Position numbers and translations under genes: made by a program
IMG/VR virus record: IMGVR_UViG_2671181134_000011
Direction: 5' to 3' (one strand)
DNA from: a virus
Lineage: Duplodnaviria > Heunggongvirae > Uroviricota > Caudoviricetes
DNA length: 17,913 nt
Notes under the pieces: generated by a model
The model's database searches: none
What the model saw: the letters and a program-made list of their open reading frames with translations, nothing else
What the model was told of the DNA's origin: nothing
Part shown: piece by piece, positions 2,520 through 17,913 of the stretch
Layout of the letters: every line of letters begins with the position of its first letter
Position numbering within the stretch: position 1 is the first letter of the stretch

Positions 2520-2640
2520 GTCTTTTTCCCTTTTCCGGTTAACGTGACACACCAATAACTCTTGTCGAAAAAGCCAGCAAGCTGAAAGAACGGTATTAAT
2601 AACCACCAGCGAATTTATTGCGCTGCTGTATATTACGGAC

Positions 2641-2664
2641 ACAAAAAAACCACCTTCCGGTGGC
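2641..2664 (-). terminator. tR'-like intrinsic terminator just downstream of the Q-like gene
   Basis: Minus-strand RNA would read GCCACC-GGAA-GGUGG followed by UUUUUUUGU (plus-strand ccaccttccggtgg at 2650-2663, A-run at 2641-2649). Confidence 0.5.
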
Positions 2665-2725
2665 TTCCTTGTGCGAAAAAAACTTGCATTTCGCCTCGCG
2701 ATACAGCCTTGCGAAGCTTATACGG

Positions 2726-2754
2726 ATTGAAGCAGTTTATTGATCAGTTTGCAA
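2726..2754 (-). promoter_or_regulatory. Candidate late promoter (pR'-like) overlapping the 3' end of the Q-like gene
   Basis: On minus strand: -35 TTGCAA (plus 2749-2754), 17-nt spacer, -10 TTCAAT (plus 2726-2731). It lies ~60-80 nt upstream of the tR'-like terminator, as expected for a Q-utilisation promoter-terminator unit. Confidence 0.3.
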
Positions 2755-3309
2755 CATTTTTTTCTCTGTAACAAAAGCCATACGCATGGGGGCATGTAAC
2801 ATAAATTCAGATATCCCCAACCACTGATCAATTCGGCGTCTGCACGTAACCAACGTCCACTCAGGATGATCTGCATTTAACCTTTCGGCCATTTTCAGTT
2901 TGCTCATTCCCCGTCCTTCGTACCTTTGCCGGAGAATATTGATTAGTCCGGGATATTCCCCAAGCACCTCACTGATAACGCGATCAATAATCAACGCCTC
3001 TGTGTCTGTACAATGTGACAACCAGCTCTTCTGCTTCCCTCTGGTCATATCCCGAAAAAATGCCTCAAGTTCCGGTTTTTCCAGCCCGGATTTCTTCATT
3101 CTGCGTAAAACCTCATTAACTGCTGTTTTCGTCAGCTTTTTCGAAACCAGTAACCGGTTAAACATATTTCCGTATTTACCCCCACCGATATACGACCACC
3201 GCCCCCACATCCGTAATTTCCCCTGGATCCAGACTGCTTCCAGCGTGTTCAGGCGTAAATGTTCGCCGCTTTTGCCTGTAATTTCCGGATATATCATATT
3301 TACGCTCAC
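2737..3309 (-). CDS. Putative late-gene antiterminator Q (assigned by position; family not recognised by eye)
   Basis: 190-codon ORF immediately 3' of rusA (GTGA start/stop overlap at 3306-3309; alternative ATG at 3295-3297) and immediately 5' of the pR'-like promoter and terminator. No Zn-finger motif seen, so family assignment is uncertain. Confidence 0.5.
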   Translation of the reverse strand: MSVNMIYPEITGKSGEHLRLNTLEAVWIQGKLRMWGRWSYIGGGKYGNMFNRLLVSKKLTKTAVNEVLRRMKKSGLEKPELEAFFRDMTRGKQKSWLSHCTDTEALIIDRVISEVLGEYPGLINILRQRYEGRGMSKLKMAERLNADHPEWTLVTCRRRIDQWLGISEFMLHAPMRMAFVTEKKMLQTDQ

Positions 3310-3665
3310 TCACTCTCAATTTTGTAAATCTTCACACCCAGCCGACCACCAAGAACAAGCTGACCACGTACAATATTGATTTCATCAAACTGCTCATCGT
3401 CCATTAACAACCCCGCATGCGTAAGCGCATCCAGCGGTGCTTTCAGAATATTGTCCAGGTCACGGCGGCGCTTATCCGGTGGTTCTGCAATAATTTTTAT
3501 TGCCAACCGTCCGGACAGGCTTAATTTCAAGCGCTGCTGGCGAACAATAAGCGCCACTGCCCGGCGATAACGCTCCCCGGCTTTTGATACAAAATATGTG
3601 CTGCCACGGCGTCGCCAGTAAGTGTTCACCGTCGGCGGGTAAGGTAAAACCAAATCTATGAGCAT
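3306..3665 (-). CDS. rusA: RusA-type Holliday junction resolvase
   Basis: 119 aa; contains PPTVNTYWR and DKRRRDLDN...DALT, closely matching the RusA signature (DRRRRDLDN in the DLP12 protein, from memory). ATG at 3663-3665. Confidence 0.85.
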   Translation of the reverse strand: MLIDLVLPYPPTVNTYWRRRGSTYFVSKAGERYRRAVALIVRQQRLKLSLSGRLAIKIIAEPPDKRRRDLDNILKAPLDALTHAGLLMDDEQFDEINIVRGQLVLGGRLGVKIYKIESE

Positions 3666-3677
3666 CAGTCACCTCTT

Positions 3678-4727
3678 TTACCCAAGCACGCCAGTTGCAA
3701 AGGCGTGATCAAGAAAACGAAAAATTAAATCAACCTGAGAACCATGCTTTTCTTCGAACGCCAGCGGATCCGCATGAAGCTCGTTATGATGCTCCCGACA
3801 CAGCGGTAGCGTGAAAATATCGTGGGCTTTTGTTCCCATTCCCCCCTGACCATGACCAATCAGGTGATGCGGATCGTCAGCTGGCTTACCACAACACGCA
3901 CACGGCTGTGTCTTTACCCAGCGCATGTATTTCTCATTAACCCAACGGCGACGTTTAGGCCGCTTCATGAACGATTCAGGAGACTCCGGATCAACGGCGA
4001 TACTGACAACCGTTTTTTTCTGTGGTGGATTTTGTTGCTGGTGGACGTGAAGTGGCAGCGCAATATTTTTTGTGCGCTGCTTCAGTATGCTGATGGCGGT
4101 CTGCTCTCCCGGTATGATGTCGCTTTCGCGATACACCGAGCGGATTTTTTCCGCACGTAACCCCAGAGAACGACGTAATACTGCCTCCGGAAGCGCGTCC
4201 GCCACCTGATTGCAGACCGCCCACCAGGATAATTCAGCCAGCGACAATTCCCGCTCCTGCGTGCCATTCATTGCATGGCGTATGACGTCAATCATCCATG
4301 CTGACAGGTTTTGATGAGCAAGTTGCCCGAGTGATTCGGATGTCTGGTCACGCAGCTGGTTGTCACAGTGCCAGCACAACACCATCGCGCCAGCGCCATA
4401 ACGGTGAATGACGGTTTCACTGTGGTGATAATCGCCGTGTGGCCACTGGCAGGATTTAACATGGCGCAGTAACCAGTCAGACAATGCGCCAGCGCCACCA
4501 GCAGCACGAATCACTCGTTCGTCGCTGAAAAATGGCAGTAATGATTTATCCTCCGCCAGCGGCTGGCGAACGGCAGGAACGACCCCGGACGGCAGATTAC
4601 GCATGCTTTTCGGTTCCGGCTCCACCAGTACCCGGGTATTTTGGAATACCGGCATGGATTCATGGCCCGGCTTAACGATCACCAGCCCGAGTTCTGGCAC
4701 AAGAACAGGTCGAAGTAATACCCGCAC
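3678..4727 (-). CDS. DUF968/YdfU-like prophage protein with C-terminal HNH-like Cys/His motif
   Basis: 349 aa; GTG start at 4725-4727 preceded by GGAGG (4 nt spacer). C-terminus has CACCGKPADDPHHLIGHGQGG...LPLCREHHNELH (Cys/His cluster). Same length and neighbourhood (hok, rem-like, Q) as Qin ydfU, recalled from memory. Confidence 0.6.
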   Translation of the reverse strand: MRVLLRPVLVPELGLVIVKPGHESMPVFQNTRVLVEPEPKSMRNLPSGVVPAVRQPLAEDKSLLPFFSDERVIRAAGGAGALSDWLLRHVKSCQWPHGDYHHSETVIHRYGAGAMVLCWHCDNQLRDQTSESLGQLAHQNLSAWMIDVIRHAMNGTQERELSLAELSWWAVCNQVADALPEAVLRRSLGLRAEKIRSVYRESDIIPGEQTAISILKQRTKNIALPLHVHQQQNPPQKKTVVSIAVDPESPESFMKRPKRRRWVNEKYMRWVKTQPCACCGKPADDPHHLIGHGQGGMGTKAHDIFTLPLCREHHNELHADPLAFEEKHGSQVDLIFRFLDHAFATGVLG

Positions 4728-4728
4728 G

Positions 4729-5007
4729 TTACCTCCAGATACGTTGCTGGAATGTGCGGGATGGACGCGGTGGGCGCTCGGAGTAAGGAAGCCTGACGGA
4801 GATTATCCAGTGACGATAATCGAGGCTGAGGGCTTTCTTAATCTCGTATCCGTGTCTGCGGTAGCACTGAATTAGCCACTCGGCCTGTTCTTCAGTGCAT
4901 GGGGGATGCTGGAACCAGTCAGATTTGAAAGTGCGGGAACGCCGCCCGTGCCTGCTGGCAAAGACGGCAGAATCATCAGAATTGTGTAATTTGGTATCGT
5001 GCGCCAT
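4729..5007 (-). CDS. Hypothetical protein, possibly rem-like (between hok and the ydfU-like gene)
   Basis: ORF-track frame 4729-5136 trimmed to the internal ATG at 5005-5007, because the upstream part overlaps the hok mRNA terminator. Weak RBS; assignment is by position only. Confidence 0.3.
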   Translation of the reverse strand: MAHDTKLHNSDDSAVFASRHGRRSRTFKSDWFQHPPCTEEQAEWLIQCYRRHGYEIKKALSLDYRHWIISVRLPYSERPPRPSRTFQQRIWR

Positions 5008-5076
5008 CGGTTGTCTCTGCTGGCGCAGCAGGTGCCAGTTGTTCAGGCTGGCGTGCGAATTGTAAACCAGAATGCC

Positions 5077-5106
5077 AGGAAAAAACAAAACCCGCCGAAG
5101 CGGGTT
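5077..5106 (-). terminator. Intrinsic terminator at the 3' end of the hok mRNA
   Basis: Minus-strand RNA: AACCCGC-UUCG-GCGGGUU followed by UUGUUUUUUCC (plus-strand stem at 5089-5106, A-run at 5080-5090). Confidence 0.6.
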
Positions 5107-5174
5107 ACGTGCGGGTGCGTTGAGGATGCCTGACATATCAGAGGTGGCGAGGGATTTCTCCCTCGCCGGGTCTC

Positions 5175-5330
5175 TTACTCCTCAGGTTCGTAAACTGTGA
5201 AGACAGCGACCTCCGTCTGGCCGGTTCGGATTCGTACCTCGCAGAGGTCTTTCCTCGTTACCAGTGCCGTCACTATGACGGTTAAACAGATGACGATCAG
5301 GGCGATTAACATCGCCTTTTGCTGCTTCAT
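5175..5330 (-). CDS. hok: Hok-family membrane toxin (51 aa)
   Basis: Translation MKQQKAMLIALIVICLTVIVTALVTRKDLCEVRIRTGQTEVAVFTVYEPEE: single TM helix and conserved C-terminal region typical of Hok/RelF. ATG at 5328-5330 with AAGGAG 10 nt upstream. The ORF track extends it in frame to an ATG at 5387. Confidence 0.8.
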   Translation of the reverse strand: MKQQKAMLIALIVICLTVIVTALVTRKDLCEVRIRTGQTEVAVFTVYEPEE

Positions 5331-5506
5331 AGCCTGCTTCTCCTTGCCTTTCGGCACGTAAGAGGCTAACCTAGATTTGCCGTTCATAGATTGAGCCTCA
5401 GATTAATGTTAAGCGTCTTGCAGGACGCGTAATGTTAACTGGGGCTTTTCTCTATCTGCCTTTTGGTATTCATGCCTGAGACAGATAGCCTCAAGCACCC
5501 GCAGCA

Positions 5507-5534
5507 ATTCTACTTAACTATCCTTTCCCCGCAA
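5507..5534 (-). promoter_or_regulatory. Candidate hok mRNA promoter
   Basis: On minus strand: -35 TTGCGG (plus 5529-5534), 16-nt spacer, -10 TAGAAT (plus 5507-5512). The predicted 5' end GGGUGCUUGAGGCU resembles the 5' end of plasmid hok mRNA as I recall it. Confidence 0.35.
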
Positions 5535-5621
5535 ATCGTTTTTATCCCCAGCGACAAATCGAATACACCACCAGCGCCACCGCCATTGCGATCCCTACCG
5601 TTGTGAATGCCTCAGGCCAGG

Positions 5622-5966
5622 TCATCGTAAAACATCCTCTGCGCTTATCAGTCCGTTTCGCTTCAGGTAGTCCATCGCCTTACCCGGCAATTTACAGTCC
5701 TGCTTCGTTTTCCTCAGTTGCCAGGTTAACTGCTTTACCAGCATGGTTAACTCGTCGACCAGACGCTGATGTCCCACTGGTTTGTATTCATGCAATTTAC
5801 CGGCTGGCTCTGCTGCCAGCGATGCCAGTGCGATTTCCAGAACAGCAATATCCATCTTATATGTGCGGATGATGTCATGGTCGTTTGTGCCCGGTATGCA
5901 CAGTCTCTGTGCTTCAATAGTCTCCTCTGCGTGAGCTATTAACTGCTCTCTGGTAAAAGTGGTCAT
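5622..5966 (-). CDS. Hypothetical nin-region protein (114 aa), paralogue of 6480-6905
   Basis: ATG at 5964-5966 overlaps the stop of the upstream gene (ATGA). N-terminus [17 protein letters not shown]...[11 protein letters not shown] parallels MTELTKEQLIEEAKLKI...KIALTSLEAEP of ORF 6480-6905. Confidence 0.5.
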
Positions 5967-6478
5967 GCCGCGCTTCCTTCTTGCTTATTAACGATTACAC
6001 CGTCATATATTTCATTAAGGTGTCCCCTCAACTCCATGCGCCTTAATGCAGACAACATGTAATCGCATTCAACCTGCTTATTTCCAGTAAATGGCTTATC
6101 GTCAGGATCACCCCAACAGCAATTACCCTTGGGCCACCCATGTACTTTCCGTACTCTTCCGTTAACAACGTGAAGTAATCCCCAGCCAGGTGGTAAATCC
6201 TCAATTGAAATAATTCCCGGCTCACTAATAAAGAATCTCCAGTCGCCCATGCCAAGAGAGGGATTTTTACGGAAACGCTTTTTTCTATCTGCCAACAAGT
6301 CAGCACGAGAACACTTCGCCTCTATCAGGCATGATGCTGAATTTCTGAATCCCATAGCATCTGGTTGTTCTCCAGTACTGGTTACAGCAACAAAGCGGTC
6401 ATGAAAGCAAACCTTGAACCCGTTGCGCTTAAGGAACCTGTACGCAATCTGACAGAGTTCGCGGTGTGTTAACGCCAT
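5963..6478 (-). CDS. Putative PD-(D/E)xK-fold nuclease (171 aa)
   Basis: Contains GEQPDAMGF-x8-LIEAK, a PD...ExK arrangement with an upstream acidic residue (HDRFVAV). ATG at 6476-6478. Confidence 0.5.
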
Positions 6479-6479
6479 C

Positions 6480-6905
6480 TCATTCTCCTTTGATGCGAAT
6501 GTTTACAACCTGACAAACCTCTTTGAGTACCCAGTCAACAGCGTCTTTCCACGCTCCAGTCTCAACTGGCGGATTCTCACGTTTTACTTGTTCATAGAAG
6601 TGCACAGCTTTAACCAGTCCTTCAGGTACTACAGGCACTGGCGGCATGCGATACAATGGAGTAACACAACGCGAAGCCTCATATTTATCTGACGGACGCT
6701 GAAATATCTCACCGAACCCATATTTTTCAATATCTCGCAGTTCCTCGTCGTCAGTCCATGCCACCGGTTCTGCTTCCAGCGATGTCAGTGCAATTTTGAA
6801 TAACTCACCCTCTACTCGTGCCACGCCTGAATTGGGATGGCATTTCGCAATCGCTATTTTTAATTTGGCTTCTTCGATTAATTGCTCTTTTGTTAATTCA
6901 GTCAT
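6480..6905 (-). CDS. Hypothetical nin-region protein (141 aa), paralogue of 5622-5966
   Basis: ATG at 6903-6905. Shared N-terminal motif with ORF 5622-5966, with nucleotide-level similarity (tgcttccagcgatgtcagtgcaatt vs tgctgccagcgatgccagtgcgatt). Ends in IRIKGE encoded by an 18-bp repeat. Confidence 0.55.
   Translation of the reverse strand: MTELTKEQLIEEAKLKIAIAKCHPNSGVARVEGELFKIALTSLEAEPVAWTDDEELRDIEKYGFGEIFQRPSDKYEASRCVTPLYRMPPVPVVPEGLVKAVHFYEQVKRENPPVETGAWKDAVDWVLKEVCQVVNIRIKGE
6484..6501. repeat. 18-bp direct repeat tctcctttgatgcgaatg, copy 1 (gene junction)
   Basis: Identical 18-mer recurs at 7363-7380; on the minus strand it encodes IRIKGE at the C-terminus of the upstream gene. Confidence 0.8.
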
Positions 6906-7000
6906 TTTTCATTACCGCTCTTTCTGGCGGCCTCCTGATGTTCTGAGGGTGCAGAAATCCCTCCGGCTAAGGATTAAATTTTTAACAGTTCTAAATTTAA

Positions 7001-7357
7001 TTATTCAGTTCTGGATTTTGTCGCCCTGCGTATCCGCGCTTTCGCGTTACGCTCAATCTGAATTAGCTTTTCTATATTTTTTCGCCTTTCCCGCTCCTCC
7101 TGGCGCAAGTGCCTTACATCATCTGCCAGTCTGGTTTCTCTTTTCGCCACAGAGAGCATCCAGTCAAATGGCTCCACAACTGCACCGCAGATTTTACAGC
7201 GGACCTGACGCTCTTTTTCGTCAACCAGGACAGAGGCGTGATGACAATATGGTCTTTCCGATGGCTCATAAAGAAAATTAACCTGATTACGAGGGTCATC
7301 CTCTTTTACCGGAAATAAAACGATATTGCTTAACTCATCCTCTGGTTTTATTTCCAT
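7001..7357 (-). CDS. Hypothetical Cys/His-motif protein (118 aa) with basic C-terminal tail
   Basis: ATG at 7355-7357 preceded by GGAGAGGAG. Motif PYCHH-x15-CKICG, then a K/R/E-rich C-terminus (RQEERERRKNIEKLIQIERNAKARIRR). Confidence 0.5.
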   Translation of the reverse strand: MEIKPEDELSNIVLFPVKEDDPRNQVNFLYEPSERPYCHHASVLVDEKERQVRCKICGAVVEPFDWMLSVAKRETRLADDVRHLRQEERERRKNIEKLIQIERNAKARIRRATKSRTE

Positions 7358-7796
7358 GCTCCTCTCCTTTGATGCGAATGCCAGCGACGCGTAATGCGTG
7401 TTCTAGGTCAATCAGGTAAAGCCAACTGCCATTTTCTTTAGGTATCATGACATGTCGCTCATCTGCATTTATCGGGTGTCCATATCGAAGGTCGTAACGA
7501 GTCGGTAATTGAACTTCCCGCGCTTCCAGTTCAGCAATACGCTTGCTCCCATCAGAGATAACGCCTTCGTAATACTCACGCTGCTCGTTGAGTTGTGATT
7601 TTGCTTCTTCCAGTCCATCCAGCAAATCAGCGATAATATCCGCTTCCCGATGACGGATGTGACGCTTAAACGCCGCTAAAGCTGCATCACAATCCTGTTC
7701 AGCGTTTGGACTGTCTGGCTTTTCCTGATACCACGCCAGCGTCGATTGATAGTTTTGTGCTGCCTCACGCAGTGCCTGATAGTCAATCTTGCTCAC
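7335..7796 (-). CDS. Hypothetical nin-region protein (153 aa)
   Basis: GTG start at 7794-7796 preceded by AAAGGAGG (7 nt spacer), overlapping the stop of the upstream gene. C-terminus ...IRIKGEEHGNKTRG contains the 18-bp repeat. Confidence 0.5.
   Translation of the reverse strand: MSKIDYQALREAAQNYQSTLAWYQEKPDSPNAEQDCDAALAAFKRHIRHREADIIADLLDGLEEAKSQLNEQREYYEGVISDGSKRIAELEAREVQLPTRYDLRYGHPINADERHVMIPKENGSWLYLIDLEHALRVAGIRIKGEEHGNKTRG
7363..7380. repeat. 18-bp direct repeat tctcctttgatgcgaatg, copy 2 (gene junction)
   Basis: Identical to 6484-6501. Confidence 0.8.
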
Positions 7797-8100
7797 TGGC
7801 TGCCTCCTTTGCCGGGATTTCTAACTTTTGAGTGGTTGTATCAAATTCAAACAACTTAACCACGTCATCAAACAGGACATAATCACCATCAGGATCTTCA
7901 GTCATATCAGTGCCACAATCCTGACCGCACGAGTCGCAACCACCCATATCAAGCTCGTATCGCTTCAGGTTCGCGATATTTGATAAATTCAGCGCCAGTA
8001 CAGCCAGATCATTAACCTCGTCTGCGGTATACCCTGCACCATGTCCATACATTCCAATGCGGGATATGATTTCTTCTACACGTTGTTTTGTGATCGTCAT
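7783..8100 (-). CDS. Hypothetical acidic protein (105 aa) with CDSCGQDCG motif
   Basis: ATG at 8098-8100 preceded by GGAGTGAAGAGAAAA; the ORF track extends it to a TTG at 8124. Acidic C-terminus. Confidence 0.45.
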   Translation of the reverse strand: MTITKQRVEEIISRIGMYGHGAGYTADEVNDLAVLALNLSNIANLKRYELDMGGCDSCGQDCGTDMTEDPDGDYVLFDDVVKLFEFDTTTQKLEIPAKEAASEQD

Positions 8101-8398
8101 TTTTCTCTTCACTCCGATATACAAGGATTACTACGCCCCCTCTGCTGATTGCGCGAGCTGGATCTCCTGGTTCCATACCGTCAATCCCGAAGGCTTCGAA
8201 AAATGCATCCATTGCCTGCTGGCGTTGATCCTGCCTACGGCGTTTATTCCATTTTTTCATGAACAACAGTGACATCCATCGTCCGCTGCAGAACATGATG
8301 TAGAAATAACCAAGAAGTGCCAGGCCGGTATTCAGGGCCGTATCAATCGTTATCGCCGGGTCAATATTCACTGACCACCTCCTGAAAAATAACCGCAT
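8012..8398 (-). CDS. Hypothetical protein with N-terminal hydrophobic segment and basic stretch (128 aa); uncertain
   Basis: ATG at 8396-8398 with GGAGAAA ~10 nt upstream. Hydrophobic segment ITIDTALNTGLALLGYFYIMF followed by KKWNKRRRQDQRQQ. Overlaps both neighbours in other frames (38 nt with 8361-8657; ~90-110 nt with 7783-8100), so the true extent is uncertain. Confidence 0.3.
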   Translation of the reverse strand: MRLFFRRWSVNIDPAITIDTALNTGLALLGYFYIMFCSGRWMSLLFMKKWNKRRRQDQRQQAMDAFFEAFGIDGMEPGDPARAISRGGVVILVYRSEEKNDDHKTTCRRNHIPHWNVWTWCRVYRRRG

Positions 8399-8657
8399 GA
8401 CCCAGTTTCTCCGTCAGTGCCAGCTCAGTCCTTGCACCTGCCGACTGCTGCCAGCCTTTCAGTATGTAAACCGCATCCACGCAACGGAGCATTGCCATGC
8501 AAATATCCATGTAGTGTGGCTGAGTCAGCCCGTCCGGAAGCACAGCCGGATTTAAAACGGTATGCCCTTCCCGTTTCAGCGCCTCTGCCGCCTTGTGAAA
8601 TGCCTCGCGGTTAAAATTTTCATATCCCGTCATCGGACCGGCGATATAAATCCTCAC
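8361..8657 (-). CDS. DUF4406-like (nucleoside 2-deoxyribosyltransferase-like fold) small protein
   Basis: 98 aa starting MRIYIAGPMTGYENFNREAF...LNPA, the characteristic N-terminus of this fold family. GTG start at 8655-8657 preceded by AGGAGGG and overlapping the upstream stop (GTGA). Confidence 0.6.
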   Translation of the reverse strand: MRIYIAGPMTGYENFNREAFHKAAEALKREGHTVLNPAVLPDGLTQPHYMDICMAMLRCVDAVYILKGWQQSAGARTELALTEKLGHAVIFQEVVSEY

Positions 8658-8971
8658 TCCTGAACCCTCCTGTCGAAATAAACGTAGTTATTCACTGCGC
8701 CCAACTTCATCCCAAACTTTTCGGCAATTTCCCGTTGGGGTACGCCACGCTGATGCAGTTGCCGCGCCAGCTCAATATCACGCTGTGAGAATTTGGCTGA
8801 CTGGTGATAATCACCCCGTAACATCATGCTGATCCCCAGTTCCCGCGCTTTCGTCCTGACGGCTGACTCACTACGGCCAATCAGATAACCGATGCTTTCG
8901 ACTCTCATCGTTCCCGCACACTGCCGGAGTATCAGGATTTCAGCCCAACGCCACTTCTTCCAGCCACTCAC
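8654..8971 (-). CDS. Putative HTH DNA-binding protein (~105 aa)
   Basis: HTH-like segments ESIGYLIGRSESAVRTKARELGI and RGVPQREIAEKFGMKLGAVNNYV. Start taken as the GTG at 8969-8971 overlapping the stop of the 44-codon ORF (GTGA); the ORF track extends it to a GTG at 9058; an ATG at 8906-8908 is an alternative start. Confidence 0.45.
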   Translation of the reverse strand: MSGWKKWRWAEILILRQCAGTMRVESIGYLIGRSESAVRTKARELGISMMLRGDYHQSAKFSQRDIELARQLHQRGVPQREIAEKFGMKLGAVNNYVYFDRRVQE

Positions 8972-9102
8972 CGCTGCTGCTCTCTGGTGGTGGTAATATC
9001 CCGGAGAATATCCCTGTGTTTGTTCAGTTCCCGCAGCGCAGCACAGACTCGCTCCCACTTCTGGACATCACTTTTCGCCCGACGCAGTTCGCGGTTTGCC
9101 AT
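8968..9102 (-). CDS. Possible 44-aa ORF (MANRELRRAKSDVQKWERVCAALRELNKHRDILRDITTTREQQR)
   Basis: ATG at 9100-9102 lies 6 nt after the stop of 9109-9684. Below the ORF-track size cut-off; no clear SD, so expression would depend on translational coupling. Confidence 0.25.
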   Translation of the reverse strand: MANRELRRAKSDVQKWERVCAALRELNKHRDILRDITTTREQQR

Positions 9103-9108
9103 ATGCAG

Positions 9109-9684
9109 CTATGGTAAAACCAGGTCATCCGCTTGCGTTTCGGTGAACAGTGGCAACGACTGCACAATATCCACCACAGTTTCTGTTTTAATATCTTCCT
9201 GTGTAGTCGTTTGCTGGACTGGTAACGCAACACCTGCTGGCTGAGGAAGGGCTTTACCATCCGTTTCCGCTACAGATGCGGCTTTCGGCTCTACTGGTAA
9301 ATTATCGCCCGGCATGCAGTAACGAAATTTACCGCCCTGATTCACGCGAATCAGACGCCCTTTGCTGATTGCCATTGCCAGCGATGAATTCGCACGGCGG
9401 GAGGTAATTCCGAACATCAATGCCAGCTCATCCGCCGTTTGTGGGCCATGTTGTTCAATCGCCTCTGTCAGCATTTGCGCCGTCACTTTTGGTGGTTGTA
9501 TCACAGATTCACTTTCCCCTGCCTGAGTCAGCCACCACATCGCCCCCCTGTTATCCGCTTCACCACGGCGTTTCAGTTTCCACAGTTCGTTGACAGCCTC
9601 TTCACGACTGATTCCAAGGCGCGCAGCCACCACATGTGAAGAGGCTTTTTTCAGTGCTTTCAGTGCGTCAGATACGGTTTCCAT
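9109..9684 (-). CDS. Hypothetical protein with two winged-helix-like segments (191 aa)
   Basis: ATG at 9682-9684 preceded by GGAGG. Segments [22 protein letters not shown] and [27 protein letters not shown] resemble wHTH recognition units. Confidence 0.55.
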
Positions 9685-9705
9685 TAAAATTTCCTCCGGA
9701 CAAAA

Positions 9706-10452
9706 TTACTTCACAACCCTCATATTGCTGACATTTGGACGCCAGCTATCCCAGTTAAACGTCACCCATCGACCACCGTTCATGGTCATGCGGTCCATAA
9801 TCCTCTCACCAAGAAGCGTACTCATTGCGGCATGATTCAGGTTTGTTAACATCCCGACACTGCACAGTGATGCTGTCCGGCGATCAATTATCTGGTGCAA
9901 TACCACCTGCTCGTTTTTCGTCTCCCGCTGGACGCCTATTTCATCCAGGACCAGCAAATCAACCCCGCAAAGCTCCTGTAAAAATTTTTCCCCGGATTTG
10001 CCGTTGTCGTAGCTGTCATGCAACACGCTCATGACGTCAGACACGGTGACGATAATCACGCTGCGCCCCTTCACCATCAGCCGGTTGCCCATCGCCGCTG
10101 CAAGGTGATTTTTCCCGGTGCCGGTTTTACCGCTGAACACAAAATTCGTGCACCCGGTCATCAGTTCGTCAGCTATGGATTTGGCCTAGCTCAGCGCGTA
10201 TTTTTGCCCGTCGTTCTGCACCTGATAATTTGCAAACGAGCATTTGCTGTGCAGAGGCTGGATGCCCGAACGATTCAGGATTTTTTCCACCCGCAACTGG
10301 CGATTCTGGCAGTTAATCTCCTCGCTGCGTTTTCGTCCTTCAGCAAGTTGCCATTCCCGCCACTCCTCCACCGTCCGGTACGGTGGAACCGCCCCCAGTG
10401 GTGCAAGTCTGCGAATACATTCAAGAACCCCAACTGCCGCAATGTTTTTCAT
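9706..10452 (-). pseudogene. dnaC-like helicase-loader gene interrupted by one in-frame amber codon (TAG at 10186-10188)
   Basis: ORFs 10186-10452 and 9706-10161 are in the same frame: ...FANYQVQNDGQKYALS*AKSIADELMTGCTNFVFSGKTGTGKNHLAAA.... Walker A GKTGTGKNHL and downstream LLVLDEIGVQ match DnaC/IstB-type AAA+ loaders; the halves align colinearly with E. coli DnaC as recalled. ATG at 10450-10452. Confidence 0.7.
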
Positions 10453-10458
10453 GCCACA

Positions 10459-11427
10459 TCACCCCCTGAATCCCGGCGGTATTTCAGTGTCCGGTTCAGA
10501 AATGTGATTTACGCAACGCTGCGCGGGCGAACGCCCCAGGCGGATAACCAGTTCATCCCATTTTTCCCTGAGTTTTGCCGGACTCATGATGTTTTTTACC
10601 CAGAACGAATCCCGCTGGACACGCCCAAACATTTCACAAATCTGCCGGTGACTACGTCCATCCAGCATACGCATCATGCGCACATCATTCGCCCAGGTCG
10701 TCCAGTTAGGTTCTCTGGGGCGTGACACCTCACCATCATCACTGGCGGCCTGTTCATACAACGCCACAACCCGTCCCCAAATCCACTGCGCACAGGCGAC
10801 ATCCTCACGGGTACCCCACTGTCGCTTCGGTACATTCCAGGTATGCGCATCTGGGTGTTTCTCCAGAAATCGCTCAACTGGTGATGATCGTTTTTCGTCC
10901 AGCAGTGAAACGTCCGGACAAGAAGATCTTTTATCTGACGGATCAGGTTTTAATACTGACGGATCGGGGTCAATCATCGCCCCCCTAATACGCAGTTTTT
11001 TATCAACCGTTGATCCATCAACATTTGACGGGTCAACCGTTGAGGGGGCAATATTTGACGGGTTAACTGTTAACGGGTCATTTTTTGCCGGGCTAATTTT
11101 TCTTTTCGGTTTATATGCCTCACGCGCCGCAGTTGCAGCTGCTTCGAGTTTTTCCACATTAAGCCGATAGATATTGCTTACGTTACGCCCACCGACCTTA
11201 CGCTCTTCCTTCGTCAGCCAGCCCTCTTTCGCCAGTTCTGCAATAGCAGATTTAACGGTGGATTCACTTCTTGCACCGATCTGACGCCGGATAGTTTCAA
11301 TGGCAGGCCATGACACGCCCTCGTCATTGCTGTAGTCTGCAAGACGGGCCATAACCGCCACCCTGGATAAGATCATGCCGGTGAAGGCGCACCCTTCCCA
11401 GACAAGACCATGAAGCTTGCTGCTCAT
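10459..11427 (-). CDS. Replication initiator (lambda O-like) with N-terminal HTH domain
   Basis: ~322 aa from the ATG at 11425-11427 (track start is a GTG at 11442). N-terminal HTH-like region, then a 5-residue periodic linker DPLTV/NPSNI/APSTV/DPSNV/DGSTV encoded by the iterons. Sits directly upstream of the dnaC-like gene. Confidence 0.7.
   Translation of the reverse strand: MSSKLHGLVWEGCAFTGMILSRVAVMARLADYSNDEGVSWPAIETIRRQIGARSESTVKSAIAELAKEGWLTKEERKVGGRNVSNIYRLNVEKLEAAATAAREAYKPKRKISPAKNDPLTVNPSNIAPSTVDPSNVDGSTVDKKLRIRGAMIDPDPSVLKPDPSDKRSSCPDVSLLDEKRSSPVERFLEKHPDAHTWNVPKRQWGTREDVACAQWIWGRVVALYEQAASDDGEVSRPREPNWTTWANDVRMMRMLDGRSHRQICEMFGRVQRDSFWVKNIMSPAKLREKWDELVIRLGRSPAQRCVNHISEPDTEIPPGFRG
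11003..11092. repeat. Iteron array (about six 15-bp units) inside the O-like gene; candidate replication origin
   Basis: Consecutive 15-mers tcaaccgttgatcca / tcaacatttgacggg / tcaaccgttgagggg / gcaatatttgacggg / ttaactgttaacggg / tcattttttgccggg. An in-gene iteron block is the arrangement known for ori-lambda. Confidence 0.5.
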
Positions 11428-11449
11428 AAACCCCCCGAACACCGTGCTT

Positions 11450-11875
11450 TTAGTGCATCACCACAGCATTCCCTGCCGGGCCGCCGCGATTCATCTGGTC
11501 ATACAAAACAACCGCTGACGCAACAAAATCATCGACATCCTTCACCAGCCGATCCCTCCGTTCGACGATCTCACGGTAATATTCAGAACTGTGGCTGCGC
11601 ATACGGGCCACCAGCAAAGGCGGCATCGCCTTTTCGATCGCCGGTAACAGAGCCTGCATTTTTTCAACAGCATCAGGGGTGTCTTTATCCAGCCAACGGA
11701 AAATTTTCTGTGTATTACGGGCCAGGGCTTCCGGATGGCTGTCGTCGTACAGTTCAGGGAACGTCATCCCCAGTTCGAAATAAGTCCGGGCTATTTCAGC
11801 TGCAGGAACTTTCTCACCGTCCGGATAGGCCCAGGCATTGATCGCCATGCGGATGTGCTCATGCTTGATTTTCAT
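11450..11875 (-). CDS. YdaT-like (CII-like) early regulator (141 aa)
   Basis: Begins MKIKHEHI, as I recall for Rac YdaT; ATG at 11873-11875 with AGGAG 9 nt upstream. Position between the cro-like gene and replication genes matches cII-type regulators. Confidence 0.5.
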   Translation of the reverse strand: MKIKHEHIRMAINAWAYPDGEKVPAAEIARTYFELGMTFPELYDDSHPEALARNTQKIFRWLDKDTPDAVEKMQALLPAIEKAMPPLLVARMRSHSSEYYREIVERRDRLVKDVDDFVASAVVLYDQMNRGGPAGNAVVMH

Positions 11876-12140
11876 GAATCAAGCTCCTAGAAAGTGGTTG
11901 TGTTAACGTTTTGGTATCTTCCAGCTCAGGCCAAATATTCATCCAATCAAAAGGCCTTAGTTGCTGACGTGTAACTTCACCATTACTGGCTCGCTCAATA
12001 AGGACACATAACGATGCCCCTAACACTTGGCCTTTACTCAATGCCTTTCTTAGATAACCGATGCTGGTACCACACTCGCATGCAAACATACGCTGTTCAT
12101 CTGACGAAAGAGAATTGAGAAATATTCTTAATTCTTCCAT
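11859..12140 (-). CDS. YdaS/Cro-like HTH regulator (93 aa), divergent from the repressor
   Basis: ATG at 12138-12140 with AAGGAG 7 nt upstream. HTH-like segment CGTSIGYLRKALSKGQV; first gene of the minus-strand early-right operon. Confidence 0.55.
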   Translation of the reverse strand: MEELRIFLNSLSSDEQRMFACECGTSIGYLRKALSKGQVLGASLCVLIERASNGEVTRQQLRPFDWMNIWPELEDTKTLTQPLSRSLIHENQA

Positions 12141-12247
12141 AGCTACTCCTTAGTAAACACAGCAAAGAATACCTATAGGTAAACAAAAGTCAATACCTTT
12201 GGGTTGTTTACCTTACGGTAATCACATCTATTATTTACCTATGGACA
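12141..12247. promoter_or_regulatory. OR-like intergenic control region with TACC-N4-GGTA palindromes
   Basis: Perfect palindrome tacctataggta at 12170-12181; taccttacggta at 12209-12220; degenerate copies tacctttgggtt (12194-12205) and tacctatggaca (12236-12247). Lies between the divergent starts at 12140 (minus) and 12241 (plus). Confidence 0.45.
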
Positions 12248-12660
12248 AATATGAATTTAGACGACAGCAGCTCATCAAAATTCGTGATGAGAAATGCGAT
12301 GGTAAAGCGGTTAACGTAGCCAGAAAGATCGGTCGCGAGCCTTCTTATGTATCAAGAATGTTGTACCCAGAGGGGAAAAAGGGAAAAAAACGGATCGCTG
12401 ATGATATGGTGGAGATTATCGAAGAGTCCTTTGGGTTACCCCGAGGATGGATGGATGGTATCGTTTCATCATCAACGAACACAGCCTCCAATTATGAAAC
12501 AAGGGTTCTAACGCCACGACAACGTATTTTTTTAGATCTCTTAGACGAGCTGCCAGAAAGTGAAGCGGATAACTTATTAAAAACTCTTGAAGAGAAAAAA
12601 CAGTATTACAATATGATCTACGAAGAAATCCGTAAAAAGAAAGCACAAAACGCATCATAA
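12241..12660 (+). CDS. Prophage repressor, DicA/RacR-like XRE-family HTH protein (139 aa)
   Basis: ATG at 12241 (track start is a TTG at 12199). HTH GKAVNVARKIGREPSYVSRML; C-terminal LDLLDELPESEADNLL resembles the DicA C-terminus as I recall it. Divergent from the cro-like gene. Confidence 0.65.
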   Translation: MDKYEFRRQQLIKIRDEKCDGKAVNVARKIGREPSYVSRMLYPEGKKGKKRIADDMVEIIEESFGLPRGWMDGIVSSSTNTASNYETRVLTPRQRIFLDLLDELPESEADNLLKTLEEKKQYYNMIYEEIRKKKAQNAS

Positions 12661-12699
12661 CTCACCAAACAACCAGTCACCAGTTAAGACGCCTGAAAA

Positions 12700-12745
12700 A
12701 AAGTTACCCATGGGTATTTACTTTTTGGGTACCCATGGGTATGCT
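12700..12745 (+). promoter_or_regulatory. OL-like operator pair and candidate early-left promoter
   Basis: Two perfect palindromes tacccatgggta at 12705-12716 and 12730-12741 (25-bp centre spacing), same half-site family as the OR sites. Candidate -35 TTTACT (12717-12722) and -10 TATGCT (12740-12745) overlap the second site. Confidence 0.4.
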
Positions 12746-12926
12746 CCCTTTCATACCAACCCACTCCGCCCCACAGAATGCAGGGCAATACCTCGAGTTA
12801 CCCGGCAGTGGTCAGGGGTTAAGTAGCCAGCCCGAGGCGTATGAACATGACGGCGGGAACACTTTGTATAACAGCGCAGCAGGTTTTTAGTTCCGCTACC
12901 CGGCGTTAAGGGTAAATGGGGTCAAC

Positions 12927-13079
12927 ATGGATACTATCGAGCTTGGCAACAACGAATCTCTGGTGTGCGGAGTATTCCCCAACCAAGACGGCACGTTTAC
13001 CGCGATGACGTATACCAAAAGTAAAACGTTTAAAACCGAAGCTGGCGCGCATCGCTGGTTAGCCAGAAACGCTAACTGA
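12927..13079 (+). CDS. Small ydfA-like (DUF1391-like) protein, 50 aa
   Basis: ATG 12927 to TGA 13077-13079: MDTIELGNNESLVCGVFPNQDGTFTAMTYTKSKTFKTEAGAHRWLARNAN. Below the ORF-track cut-off. Resembles small proteins following the repressor in Qin/Rac-type prophages (from memory). Confidence 0.5.
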   Translation: MDTIELGNNESLVCGVFPNQDGTFTAMTYTKSKTFKTEAGAHRWLARNAN

Positions 13080-13334
13080 TTAGCGCCAGTAAAAACAGGT
13101 TTCCACAGGTTAATTTACCCTGAAAAGTCAGGGCATAACACGAAAGCGCACGGCGAGATTCCTTTGCATATAAGGTTAGATTTCTTCGACCGTGCGCTTC
13201 CGGTTGTGGCAATCCGCGAAATGGCGCGGCGGTAAGTATGGCGGGGTTATTCCTTCCCCCGTTGAGGACACCGGGTTGTCAGGTTGACCATACGCTTAAG
13301 TGACACCCCAGCCACAACAACCTCTGTTATCACT

Positions 13335-13373
13335 TTTCTGGTGATTCGGCGGAAATGAATATCCGCCCTTTTT
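13335..13373 (+). ncRNA. dicF: DicF-like small RNA, shortened variant, with intrinsic terminator
   Basis: tttctggtga ttc ggcgg aaatgaatat ccgcc cttttt: the 5' UUUCUGGUGA, the GGCGG...CCGCC stem and the 3' CUUUUU tail match K-12 DicF as I recall it, but ~20 nt of internal sequence are missing. Lies directly upstream of dicB. Confidence 0.5.
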
Positions 13374-13551
13374 AAAGTGAATTTTGTGATGCTGTGAATG
13401 CGGCTATGCGCACGCGGAACAGTTAAAGCAGTAAGGCGGTCTTTTACTGGCGTAACGAGCATCAACTAACCCGACGTTAATTGTTAACTGGTTAACGTCA
13501 CCTGGAGGCACCAGGCGCTGCATCACAAAATTCATTGTTGAGGACGCGATA

Positions 13552-13740
13552 ATGGAAACGTTATTACCAAACGTTAATACGTCTGAAGGTTGTTTTGATA
13601 TTGGTGTTCTGCTCAGTAATAAAGCGTTTACTGAGGATGCCATTAATATGCGGAAATATGAGCCTTATCTGCTCAATGATAATTCCATTCTTTCCCGAAT
13701 TGCCCTTATTAAACTTGGTATTTTCGGAGAACGTCAATGA
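13552..13740 (+). CDS. dicB: DicB-like cell-division inhibitor (62 aa)
   Basis: METLLPNVNTSEGCFDIGVLLSNKAFTEDAINMRK... matches the DicB N-terminus (MKTLLPNVNTSEGCFEIGV...FTEDAINKRK, from memory). GAGGA SD 6 nt upstream of the ATG; AT-rich codon usage. Confidence 0.7.
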   Translation: METLLPNVNTSEGCFDIGVLLSNKAFTEDAINMRKYEPYLLNDNSILSRIALIKLGIFGERQ

Positions 13741-13925
13741 CTTCAGCATTTGCACTGGTGATGACGGTTTTTCTTATAACGGGTGAATAACAGAATGTGA
13801 TTACCGGAATTTATGCCAGTAAAGAATCCTGCCTCCAGGCAAGAGACGAGCAAAAAATTTCTGGTGAATGCCTACCGGTAAAAAAAGTATCGCTGAACCT
13901 GAATAACGAAACACCGGCTGGATAA
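13737..13925 (+). pseudogene. ydfD-like small membrane protein gene interrupted by in-frame TAA at codon 18
   Basis: ATG 13737 (ATGA overlap with the dicB stop): MTSAFALVMTVFLITGE, TAA at 13788-13790, then 44 further in-frame codons QNVITGIYASKESCLQARDEQKISGECLPVKKVSLNLNNETPAG to TAA at 13923-13925. Total 63 codons, the size and position of Qin ydfD as recalled. Confidence 0.45.
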
Positions 13926-14020
13926 CCCGCCAGCCATATTAACGCCATACCAACGGATTAAAAATGCCAGCAATAGCAGGGATTCGTTCACCCTGAAATC
14001 TGTAATGAGGTTAAAACACA

Positions 14021-16492
14021 ATGAATAAAATCTTTATTTGCGCTGCTATTCCTGACGAACAGGCCATAGAAGAAGATAGCGCTGTTGCGGTGGCCACTGC
14101 CATTGAAGCCGGTGATGAGCGTCGCGCACGCGCAAAATTTCACTGGCAATTTCTGGAGCAATTCCCGGCAGCTCAGGACTGCGCTTATAAATTTATTGTC
14201 TGCGAGGATAAACCCAGTATACCCCGCCCTGCCCTCGATTCCTGGGATACCGAATATATGCAGGAAAACCGCTGGGATGAGGAGTCTGCGTCCTTTGTCC
14301 CGGTCGAACCCGAATCCGATCCGATGAACGTCACTTTTGACAATCTGGCCCCTGAAGTACAGAACGCCGTCATGGTTAAGTTCGACGCATGTGAAAACAT
14401 CACTGTTGATATGGTGATTAGCGCTCAGGAATTGTTGCAGGAAGACATGGCAACATTCGACGGCCATATCGTTGAAGCGTTGATGAAGATGCCAGAAGTT
14501 AACGCCATGTATCCGGAGCTTAAGCTGCATGCCATCGGGTGGGTTAAGCATAAATGTAAACCTGCTGCTAAATGGCCCGAAATTCAGGCAGAGATGCGCA
14601 TCTGGAAAAAACGTCGCGAAAGTGAACGCAAGGAAACCGGGAAATACATATCTGTCGTTGATATCGCCCGTTCCAGAGTAAACCAACAGAACACTGAAAA
14701 CGCTGCTGAAAAAACCGGGGCTGTCACTGTTGCCGTTCGCCGCGAATACAAACAGACATGGAAAACACTCGACAATGAACTGGCCTGCGCCCTCTGGCCC
14801 GGTGATGTGGATGCAGGAAACATTGACGGTACCATCCATCGCTGGGCGACAAATGAGGTTATCGACAAGGATCGCGAAGACTGGAAGCGTATCTCAGCAT
14901 CAATGCGCAAACAGCCCGAAGCACTTGCCTATGACCGTCAGACTATTTTTGGCCTTGTTCGCGAACGTCCGATCGATATTCACAAAGATCCCGTTGCACT
15001 GAACAAATATATCAGCGAATACCTGACGACAAAGGGCGTGTTTGAACATGAAGAAACAGACCAGAGCTCTGCTGATGCTCTCCAGTCACCAGCAGCACAA
15101 ACTGCTCCAGTGGAGACGGCAGAATCCGATACTCAAAAAAATGAAATCCTGGTGGAAGCTGAACCATCTGTAGAGCGTGAAGGACCATTTTATTTCGTCT
15201 TTACCGATAAGGGCGGGGAAAAATACGGCAGGGCAAACAAACTTTCTGGTCTGGACAGGGCGCTGGCTGCCGGCGGTACCGAAATCTCAAAAGAAGAATA
15301 TTTTGCCCGAAAAAATGGCACATACACGGGCTTACCGCAAAATGTGGATAGCACTGAAGATTCCGAACAACCAGAGCCGGTAAAAGTTACCGCTGACGAA
15401 GTAAACAAAATTATGCAGGCAGCCAATATCAGCCAGCCTGACGCCGATAAATTGCTTGCTGCATCACGTGGTGAATTTGTTGAAGGGATTAGCGACCCGG
15501 ATGATCCGAAATGGGTGAAAGGGATCCAGAGTCGCGACGCTGAGGACCAGAATCAGCCCAACGTGAAACAAAATGAGCCAGAAGCGGAACAAAACAGCCC
15601 GGATACGCAACAAAACGGGCCAGAAGAACAACAACCAGAACCAGCAGTGCAACAGGAACTGGAAAAAGTTTGCACCGCATGCGGTCAGACCGGTGGCGGC
15701 AACTGTCCTGACTGTGGTGCGGTGATGGGGAACGCAACCTACCAGGAAACATTCGATGAAGAAAATCAGGCTGAAGCTCAGGAAAATGATCCGGAGGAAA
15801 TGGAAGGCACTGAACATCTGCACAAGGAGAACACTGTCAGCGATCAGTATCACGCCAGCGATAATAAAACTGGCGAAACAGCAAATCCCTTAATTAAAGT
15901 GAACGGTCATCATGAAACCACATCCACCAGCAGGTTGTGGCACCATCTGATGATTGACCTTGAAACAATGGGAAAAAATCCTGATGCGCCAATAAACGCT
16001 ATAGCCGGTAAGTTTTTTGATCCGGCAACCGGAGAGATGGGGCCAGAATTCAGCAAAACTATCGATCTGGAAACCGCAGGCGGGGTCATCGATCGGGACA
16101 CCATTAAGTGGTGGCTGAAACAGTCACGCGAAGCACAATCCGCCATTCTGACCGATGAAATCCCGTTGGATGATGCACTGCTGCAATTCCGGGAATTTAT
16201 CGACGAAAACTCCGGTGAATTTTTTGTTCAGGTCTGGGGTAACGGTGCAACTTTCGACAACGTGATTTTACGCCGTTCATATGAACGGCAGGGGATCCCC
16301 TGCCCGTGGCGTTACACCAATGATCGCGATGTAAGAACGATGGTTGCTCTGGGACTGGTGATGGATTTCGACGCAAGAACGACTATTCCATTCGAAGGTG
16401 AACGCCATAACGCGCTGCACGATGCGCGTTACCAAGCAAAATACGTTTCAGCCATCTGGCAAAAACTGATCCCGAGTCAGGCTGATTTTTAA
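14021..16492 (+). CDS. Large early-left protein (823 aa): N-terminal region of unknown function, acidic low-complexity linker with CxxC-x7-CxxC ribbon, C-terminal DEDDh 3'-5' exonuclease domain
   Basis: ATG 14021 with GAGG 10 nt upstream; single open frame to TAA 16490-16492. DnaQ-like motifs in order: MIDLETMG (D646, E648), WGNGATFDNV (D746), HNALHDARY (H796/H800, D801). Zn-ribbon CTACGQTGGGNCPDCG at nt 15671-15715. Directly upstream of xis-int. Confidence 0.8.
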   Translation: MNKIFICAAIPDEQAIEEDSAVAVATAIEAGDERRARAKFHWQFLEQFPAAQDCAYKFIVCEDKPSIPRPALDSWDTEYMQENRWDEESASFVPVEPESDPMNVTFDNLAPEVQNAVMVKFDACENITVDMVISAQELLQEDMATFDGHIVEALMKMPEVNAMYPELKLHAIGWVKHKCKPAAKWPEIQAEMRIWKKRRESERKETGKYISVVDIARSRVNQQNTENAAEKTGAVTVAVRREYKQTWKTLDNELACALWPGDVDAGNIDGTIHRWATNEVIDKDREDWKRISASMRKQPEALAYDRQTIFGLVRERPIDIHKDPVALNKYISEYLTTKGVFEHEETDQSSADALQSPAAQTAPVETAESDTQKNEILVEAEPSVEREGPFYFVFTDKGGEKYGRANKLSGLDRALAAGGTEISKEEYFARKNGTYTGLPQNVDSTEDSEQPEPVKVTADEVNKIMQAANISQPDADKLLAASRGEFVEGISDPDDPKWVKGIQSRDAEDQNQPNVKQNEPEAEQNSPDTQQNGPEEQQPEPAVQQELEKVCTACGQTGGGNCPDCGAVMGNATYQETFDEENQAEAQENDPEEMEGTEHLHKENTVSDQYHASDNKTGETANPLIKVNGHHETTSTSRLWHHLMIDLETMGKNPDAPINAIAGKFFDPATGEMGPEFSKTIDLETAGGVIDRDTIKWWLKQSREAQSAILTDEIPLDDALLQFREFIDENSGEFFVQVWGNGATFDNVILRRSYERQGIPCPWRYTNDRDVRTMVALGLVMDFDARTTIPFEGERHNALHDARYQAKYVSAIWQKLIPSQADF

Positions 16493-16556
16493 TGTTCAAC
16501 CCCGGTCGTCGCCCGCAAGCTATAGTGGCGGCGACCATGATTAGCGAACAACTCTC

Positions 16557-16805
16557 ATGGCAAGACTTATTCTTCTCACTGAGTGGGCAAAAGAGGAATT
16601 CAGTGACCCGGTCCCGACTCCGGGCACGTTAAGTAAATACGCTAAAGCCGGAATGATATTTCCTCTCCCCAAAAAAGTTGGAAGACACTGGCGAGTGGAT
16701 CCTCGAGCTCGCTTTGTCGGAATGGTAAACAAGCCGGAAGTGATCGCCACAGATCACCCTGCTTTGAAGAGGATACTGGAAGATGGCGCGCCCACGAAAA
16801 TATAA
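16557..16805 (+). CDS. xis: Excisionase (Xis-like)
   Basis: 82 aa, MARLILLTEWAKEEF...GMIFPLPKKVGRHWRV resembles the lambda Xis fold signature (LTLQEW...RIFPPPVKDGREY). Overlaps the int start by 23 nt, as in lambda. Confidence 0.7.
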   Translation: MARLILLTEWAKEEFSDPVPTPGTLSKYAKAGMIFPLPKKVGRHWRVDPRARFVGMVNKPEVIATDHPALKRILEDGAPTKI

Positions 16806-17913
16806 AACTGAAGTTCCGGGATTATCTCCGTATTTTGACAAAAGAAATAACAAAGTTTACTGGCGTTACAGGCATCCCATAACAGGAAAAAATCACGGAC
16901 TCGGCAGTATTGACCAGAAACAGGCAGAAGCTATTGCAGCAGAAGCGAACAGCCGTCTTGCCAGGCAACAAATGGAACAAATGCTCAGTCTGCAGGAGAA
17001 AATTATTAGTGATACCGGTAGTCCATCAACCGTTTCTGCTTTTCTGAATAGTTACCGAAAAATTCAACAGGAAAGATATGAAAACGGAGAGATCAAACTC
17101 AACACACTGAAACAGAAAGCATCCCCTCTCAGAGTATTTGATGAACGTTTTGGTACCAGACCATTAGATGCCATAACCGTAAAAGATGTGGTATCGGTGC
17201 TGGAAGATTACAAGGCAAAAGGACATAACAGAATGGGACAAATTTTCAGGAAAGTACTGATCGATGTTTTCCGGGAGGCCCAGCAAACGGGCGATGTCCC
17301 GCTAGGCTTTAACCCTGCAGAATCGGCAAAAAAACCACAGGTACGGATATCACGGCAACGACTGACCTTTGATGAGTGGATGATGATTTATAATGCAGCG
17401 GAAAAGGATGGTTACTTTTTACAGCGTGGTATGCTGCTGGCACTGATGACAGGCCAGCGCCTTTCAGATATTTGCAAAATGAAATTTTCGGATATCAGGG
17501 ATGGTTATCTTCATGTCGAACAGCAAAAAACAGGAACCCGGATTGCCATCCCTCTGGCTCTGCGTTACGATAAATTAAATCTCACCCTGGATGATGTGGT
17601 GTCATCCTGTCGCGATTGCGTTCTTAGTCCGTGGCTATTGCACCACCATCATGCTAAAGGGACAGCTAAGCGCGGCGGGATGGTTAAGCCAGCAACGTTA
17701 ACCGTTGCATTTAAAAAAGCCCGGGATTCTGTGGATTACAACTGGCGTGCTAATGGCACCCCACCCTCTTTCCATGAGCAGAGATCTTTATCAGAACGAT
17801 TGTTCAGAGAACAGGGAATTGATACCAAAATTTTGCTGGGCCATTCGAATCAAAAAATGACCGATATTTACAACGACGCACGCGGTAAGGAATGGAAAAA
17901 ACTGGTCATTTGA
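16783..17913 (+). CDS. int: Tyrosine integrase, lambda Int family (376 aa, complete)
   Basis: Catalytic-region motifs TGQRLSD, HVEQQKTGTRIAIP, HEQRSLSERL and LLGHSNQKMTDIYNDARGKEWKKL align with lambda Int (VVTGQRVGD, YVEQSKTGVKIAIP, HELRSLSARL, LLGHKSDTMASQYRDDRGREWDKI). Stop codon is the last three bases of the window. Confidence 0.9.
   Translation: MARPRKYKTEVPGLSPYFDKRNNKVYWRYRHPITGKNHGLGSIDQKQAEAIAAEANSRLARQQMEQMLSLQEKIISDTGSPSTVSAFLNSYRKIQQERYENGEIKLNTLKQKASPLRVFDERFGTRPLDAITVKDVVSVLEDYKAKGHNRMGQIFRKVLIDVFREAQQTGDVPLGFNPAESAKKPQVRISRQRLTFDEWMMIYNAAEKDGYFLQRGMLLALMTGQRLSDICKMKFSDIRDGYLHVEQQKTGTRIAIPLALRYDKLNLTLDDVVSSCRDCVLSPWLLHHHHAKGTAKRGGMVKPATLTVAFKKARDSVDYNWRANGTPPSFHEQRSLSERLFREQGIDTKILLGHSNQKMTDIYNDARGKEWKKLVI

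Follow-up and report, generated by a model that had tools for sequence, protein, structure and literature searches.

An inherited amber codon in the DnaC-type helicase-loader gene of a Rac-like Escherichia coli prophage beside ompW

The DNA analysed here is a tailed-phage record of 17,913 nucleotides (IMGVR_UViG_2671181134_000011), referred to at its full length as the window; it is 100% identical to contig LOGR01000061.1 of assembly GCA_001608165.1. Its replication module is an early-right operon of the Rac type on the minus strand, in which a ydaS/cro-like and a ydaT-like gene are followed by an O-like replication initiator, a DnaC-like helicase loader and a DUF1627/ydaW-like gene (Table 1). 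A pR-like site for this operon was found by pattern matching at 12193-12166 on the minus strand. The gene at the repressor position has no Pfam match and is assigned by phrog_5736 only; in related prophages this position is occupied by a CI of the LexA/S24 family. The window ends with xis and int, and the prophage of its relatives is integrated next to ompW. The O-like gene, annotated by PGAP in a version of 969 nt as a "helix-turn-helix domain-containing protein", ends 6 nt ahead of the loader ATG. It contains an array of iteron-like units that stand in tandem, each of them a short palindrome. By analogy with the iterons of ori-lambda, which lie inside gene O, this array is a candidate prophage origin.

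Table 1. Features of the replication module and its surroundings in the window
Feature	Position	Strand	Basis
DnaC-type helicase-loader pseudogene (Rac ydaV-like, PRK12377)	9706..10452	-	translation, profile matches, PGAP
Amber TAG, codon 89, ancestral CAG (Gln)	10186..10188	-	codon comparison with intact orthologues
88-codon N-terminal ORF, Shine-Dalgarno GGGGGTGA before ATG	10186..10452	-	sequence, DnaC alignment
151-codon C-terminal ORF from ATG (Met98), AAA+ core	9706..10161	-	translation; Pfam IstB_IS21 match
DUF1627 (ydaW-like) pseudogene	8968..9684	-	Pfam DUF1627 6.5e-89; PGAP "internal stop"
O-like replication initiator, intact	10459..11442	-	HTH_36; phrog_391, 3.6e-105
Six 15-bp iteron-like units TCAACNNTTGANNGG, inside the O-like gene	11003..11092		repeat search
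ydaS-like (cro-type) and ydaT-like genes, operon head	11450..12140	-	Pfam YdaS_toxin, YdaT_toxin; annotation
Divergent promoter-like pair: pR-like (-), pRM-like (+)	12166..12234		consensus scan, pattern matches only
Repressor-position gene	12199-12660	+	PHROG phrog_5736 "transcriptional regulator"

Translation of the loader frame from 10452 to 9706 gives 248 codons with a sole break at codon 89: 88 sense codons lead to TAG (10188-10186, read as CTA on the plus strand) and a further 159 to TAA (9708-9706). In the mechanical ORF list the same stretch appears as two ORFs of one common frame, 10186..10452 (88 aa) and 9706..10161 (151 aa), both on the minus strand. Since the TAG is separated from the ATG at 10161-10159 by only eight sense codons (AKSIADEL), it alone interrupts the frame. 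A preliminary description of this locus had reported exactly this arrangement of two ORFs in a shared frame with a TAG as the only break, and both the translation and the ORF list confirm it; the strand of the gene was absent from that description. The loader ATG at 10452 is preceded by the strong Shine-Dalgarno sequence GGGGGTGA. The sequence just upstream of the Met98 ATG at 10161, AATCCATAGCTGACGAACTG, contains no Shine-Dalgarno, and a consensus scan inside the gene revealed no promoter-like site for the C-terminal half.

With codon 89 read as Q, the 248-aa product matches the NCBIfam model NF009043 (PRK12377, "ATP-binding protein") over positions 1-248 of 248 with 497.1 bits (cut-off 389, E=9e-150) and the PHROG family phrog_50, "DnaC-like helicase loader", with 1.2e-80; it also matches Pfam IstB_IS21. 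Residues 9-242 align colinearly with residues 7-241 of E. coli DnaC (6qel_G, E=1.7e-72). Because the Q89 product matches PRK12377 end to end and is colinear with DnaC, there is no doubt, on the sequence, that 9706-10452 is a single gene rather than a chance pair of ORFs. The earlier assignment of the halves to the two parts of a DnaC-like loader was thus correct. The score against the DnaC equivalog model NF005931 (291.3 bits) lies under its 357-bit cut-off, so that the protein is a phage-borne paralogue and not DnaC itself.

Walker A (GKTGTGKN, 108-115, with K114) and Walker B (LLVLDEIG, 166-173) are aligned to K112 and E170 of DnaC, and both AAA+ signatures of the PRK12377 subfamily, GxxGxGK and hhhhDE, are present; the uninterrupted coding sequence expected of a functional member is broken here by the TAG at codon 89. 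Residues 1-75 of DnaC form its helicase-binding domain, and K112 is the lysine of Walker A (PMC8213410). The 88-codon ORF corresponds to the whole of this domain (DnaC 1-75, approximately residues 1-77 here) plus 11 residues, and the stop, at the equivalent of DnaC residue 87, lies 20 residues ahead of the Walker A P-loop. From its place between the helicase-binding domain and Walker A, it cuts off the entire AAA+ module. A product restarted at Met98 would be without the helicase-binding domain and also without the equivalents of DnaC 76-95, ~20 residues at the start of the AAA+ domain.

The TAG was compared across 16 closely related sequences from Switzerland, Japan, China and metagenomes, which include complete genomes from different laboratories and countries, drafts and metagenome assemblies. 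It is present in 15 of them. Five complete E. coli genomes, of Swiss and Japanese isolates, match segment 9500-10700 of the window at 100% identity, and four more do so at 99% or above; three of these four have the TAG. The exact 88-aa product occurs in 331 blocks of public assemblies; among the matches listed (ten places), all show the ompW context and the split into 88 and 151 aa; contig LOGR01000061.1 is one of these places. In at least eight complete genomes PGAP/RefSeq describes the locus as "ATP-binding protein, internal stop", a pseudogene. A sequencing or assembly error hiding a sense codon at this place, which the preliminary description had listed among its explanations, is a possibility that any single-base difference raises a priori, and we found nothing in its support. 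The same base in 15 of 16 sequences from separate assemblies, the abundance of the truncated product and the phylogenetic segregation of site 10188 together with linked sites refute it, and we consider an error practically out of the question.

The ancestral state is equally well defined. Intact orthologues with 97%, 96% and 81% amino acid identity have CAG (Gln) at codon 89, and Q89 is found in all four intact sequences aligned, including that of the inducible Stx phage POCJ13. The comparison with intact orthologues that had been proposed as a check therefore gave a uniform answer, CAG in every one examined. Given this state in the orthologues, the change at codon 89 is, as read from the alignment, CAG to TAG, a single C to T transition on the coding strand (G to A at 10188 on the plus strand).

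The history of the allele was reconstructed from an alignment of window positions 7362-17913 with 15 relatives and, for the replication-gene segment, two outgroups. In the resulting tree, KY203 and KY177 branch off as a pair after the outgroups, followed by the LZSFT34 type; the remaining lineage divides into the pair of SCU-106 and L022 and the window type. As the TAG occurs in every sublineage, and in 15 of 16 sequences, its origin is placed by this reconstruction on the stem of the ompW-prophage clade, together with a synonymous change at 9931. The sublineages differ from each other at about 40 sites per 10.5 kb (about 0.4%), and the allele is accordingly not very recent. The mutation had been suspected to be both inactivating and recent; the latter term has to be qualified, since the TAG predates the split of sublineages ~0.4% apart and is found worldwide. 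Substitutions in the clade after the TAG (three synonymous, two non-synonymous and one frameshift) were too few for dN/dS-type evidence of relaxed constraint.

The single exception is SCU-106, in which codon 89 is CAG and the loader gene is intact. Its nearest relative L022 has the TAG, and both share 14807A and the deletion at 12696. SCU-106 looks ancestral at only two sites that changed on the stem (9931 and 10188), and it is derived at the flanking sites 9169, 10231 and 10311. Judged from this pattern, its CAG was most likely regained by recombination over a short patch (<1.1 kb), with an intact close relative as donor. Two independent back-mutations were considered and are very unlikely, with an estimated probability of the order of 1e-3. 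E. coli JNEC-KY177 carries a 4-bp insertion at 10034 (CGTC, plus strand) in the C-terminal half of its TAG-bearing loader, which is further decay of the gene. Numerous private changes and several additional frameshifts set the KY177 prophage apart, for which assembly quality, besides decay, could be responsible.

The loader is not the only damaged gene of the prophage. The adjacent DUF1627 gene, with the Shine-Dalgarno GGAGGAAA before its start, is interrupted by an in-frame TAG at 9111-9109 (codon 192), where the ancestral codon is TCG (Ser192). The window-type, LZSFT34-type and SCU-106 sublineages share this second TAG, which KY203 and KY177 lack; being confined to the non-KY subclade, it is younger than the loader TAG. 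The rest of the ompW prophage was inspected in three complete genomes, with frameshifts as called by PGAP. In S19-651, IS600 is inserted in the portal gene, and the portal and tape-measure genes are frameshifted; KY203 has frameshifts in the portal, major-capsid and integrase genes; in SCU-106, an IS66 element sits in the lysis region, the portal gene is broken and three frameshifts lie in tail genes. Overall, the ompW prophage looks like a long-resident, vertically inherited and defective element. The earlier suggestion of a decaying prophage with an inactivating mutation is thus upheld by the ancestral CAG, by the IS insertions and frameshifts of the relatives and by the DUF1627 nonsense codon. 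The prophage of S19-651 (L003 1339-19797) also encodes, at and within its late end, a 1330-aa autotransporter peptidase of the S6 family (SPATE-type), a YadA-like adhesin and a Lom/Ail protein, and a porin gene of the ompC-like kind is inserted among its tail genes.

The window itself is a mosaic with a junction at ~7361/7362. Positions 7362-17913 match the ompW prophage of S19-651 at 99.99% identity; positions 1-7361 (the nin/Q region with a hok-like gene and a DUF1133-type Q) are ~97% identical to a second prophage of the same strains, located at potC. Such a junction points to exchange between co-resident lambdoid prophages. The decay of structural genes was observed in the sister genomes, where these genes were inspected, and window positions 1-7361 belong to a different mosaic. 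The potC prophage of S19-651 was also considered as a source of a spare dnaC-like copy; this second lambdoid prophage has a loader of the lambda-P type and thus offers no DnaC-type gene for complementation or as a recombination donor.

Taken together, these observations make it very probable that the inherited change of the Gln89 codon CAG to TAG inactivates the DnaC-type loader of a lambdoid, Rac-like E. coli prophage beside ompW, and that the locus is an ordinary pseudogene. Translation starting at the ATG at 10452 with its Shine-Dalgarno would end after 88 residues, with the whole AAA+ module lost, and from this truncation we infer the loss of loader function. After derepression, the O-like initiator could still bind the iteron origin within its own gene; host DnaB, however, would not be recruited without the loader, and prophage replication is expected to fail. 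The mutation goes back to the stem of a now worldwide prophage lineage; in the relatives at least, it is one of several lesions of an element that appears to be decaying, retained by the host and carrying cargo. Its fixation may have had either of two reasons. With the operon repressed in the lysogen, neutral decay may suffice. Alternatively, selection may have acted against lethal in situ replication ("replicative killing") in a prophage that could no longer complete its cycle. In lambda, the survivors of derepression that escape replicative killing are replication-initiation mutants, classically of O and P (PMC6022878).

Two other readings of the locus would leave the interrupted gene with a role. 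According to one of them, two fragments are produced, the 88-aa helicase-binding part and, by restart at Met98, a 151-aa AAA+ part, which act jointly or separately; the preliminary description had pointed to the ATG at 10159-10161 as a possible start of a separate ATPase half. The TAG does lie 11 residues beyond the boundary of the helicase-binding domain, and the in-frame ATG follows 24 nt downstream. Post-termination reinitiation at distances like this is known in E. coli, and PHROGs contains short "DnaC-like" families that match the C-terminal half only (phrog_3277). However, Met98 lacks the kind of Shine-Dalgarno that precedes the real starts of the loader (GGGGGTGA) and DUF1627 (GGAGGAAA), having AATCCATAGCTGACGAACTG in its place, and no promoter-like site lies within the gene. 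The restart product would miss not only the helicase-binding domain but also the beginning of the AAA+ domain (equivalents of DnaC 76-95). Moreover, the split occurs in a single clade of at least 99% identity, while every intact diverged homologue has one ORF with Q89; even within the clade, KY177 adds a frameshift to the C-terminal half and SCU-106 is back to a single ORF. A second ORF with a ribosome-binding site of its own and a split kept across lineages, as would characterise a two-gene loader, are both lacking here. The suggestion of a split protein thus gains no support, and we regard a functional split as highly unlikely.

According to the other reading, the two ambers in adjacent genes of the replication module make replication conditional on a suppressor tRNA or on leaky UAG readthrough. 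Both interrupted genes, the loader and DUF1627, do end prematurely in TAG, and a third internal TAG occurs downstream of Q in a methyltransferase remnant of the S19-651 prophage (L003 42038-42202; ..FMG*GS.., presumably a former Ser codon). The mutational expectation, nevertheless, deprives this coincidence of weight: among the one-step nonsense mutations open to these genes, 33-53% should yield TAG, the joint chance of both stops being amber is about 0.15-0.23 over such paths, and the identity of the two stops was rejected as a signal by this null. The two TAGs also differ in age and in source codon (CAG and TCG), with sense codons at these places in relatives. The fourth nearby internal stop, in the potC prophage (L013 3868-4008), is an unrelated TAA; the resulting three TAG and one TAA among the four internal stops in about 90 kb of ompW and potC prophages are not significant. 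A recoded stop, moreover, should be kept in diverged homologues, and in this case CAG/Q is found at 97%, 96% and 81% amino acid identity and in one member of the clade. ARAGORN detected no tRNA gene in the window, and in 112 kb of related prophage DNA it found only tRNAs for Arg(UCG) and with the anticodon CAU, none with CUA. A BLAST search for a supE-type glnV(CUA) gave perfect matches in 155 complete E. coli records; the matches listed (60) all come from strains of K-12 size or laboratory type, and the nine relevant genomes are absent from them. The idea of a suppressor-dependent switch, also put forward in the preliminary description, therefore finds no support in the sequences searched, and we attach very little credence to it.

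A more speculative variant concerns the N-terminal fragment. The TAG is close to the boundary between the domains, and the helicase-binding domain stays intact in a well-initiated ORF, which is compatible with residual function. The isolated N-terminal domain of DnaC retains some activity in vitro. A stand-alone 88-residue DnaB-binding peptide might be kept for the good of the host, for instance through interference with the hijacking of the helicase by superinfecting phages. Such a host-beneficial peptide, or a replication switch conditional on natural suppressors, is, even when the two are considered jointly, very improbable; if either were true, what looks like a pseudogene would be a module, domesticated or conditional, of an E. 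coli lineage found around the globe.

As an inactivated loader gene, the locus is of little importance beyond annotation. It is already annotated as a pseudogene in RefSeq/PGAP and presents nothing beyond ordinary prophage decay; our literature search found no report on ydaV/DnaC in prophages, on these strains or on this assembly. The proper label is a DnaC-like loader pseudogene and not two genes, and public gene callers that split it into "proteins" of 88 and 151 aa pollute the protein databases. The TAG at 10188 and the later one at 9110 may be useful as clean, phylogenetically ordered markers of one ompW-prophage lineage. Finally, the locus provides a small natural example of the stepwise decay of a replication module with occasional repair by recombination.

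The closest known systems are the prophage paralogues of DnaC in the PRK12377/phrog_50 group, such as ydaV of Rac and gp17 of Shigella phage POCJ13, the latter with 81% amino acid identity to the loader. Like them, the loader is full-length and colinear and keeps both Walker motifs, and it is found in the same Rac-type gene order of cro/ydaS-like, ydaT-like, O-like initiator, DnaC-like and DUF1627/ydaW-like genes. Whereas the intact paralogues have CAG at codon 89, the loader has TAG, and its normal start yields the first 88 residues only. Chromosomal DnaC of E. coli (PDB 6QEL/6QEM), reportedly a ring breaker (Arias-Palomo et al. 2013), has the same two domains, helicase-binding and AAA+; the loader differs from it in falling below the NF005931 cut-off and in being interrupted. 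A further parallel is provided by the O and P ambers of lambda and by the replication-null RK- survivors of defective lambda prophages from the Hayes laboratory (PMC6022878). Here, too, a nonsense codon in a gene for the initiation of prophage replication puts an end to origin firing, and in lambda it is such mutations that survive the derepression of a non-excisable prophage. These mutants, however, were selected in the laboratory and affect lambda P, a loader outside the AAA+ class, whereas the allele described here is natural and affects a loader of the DnaC type. With the cryptic-prophage pseudogenes of E. coli that PGAP labels "internal stop", the loader locus compares without material difference.
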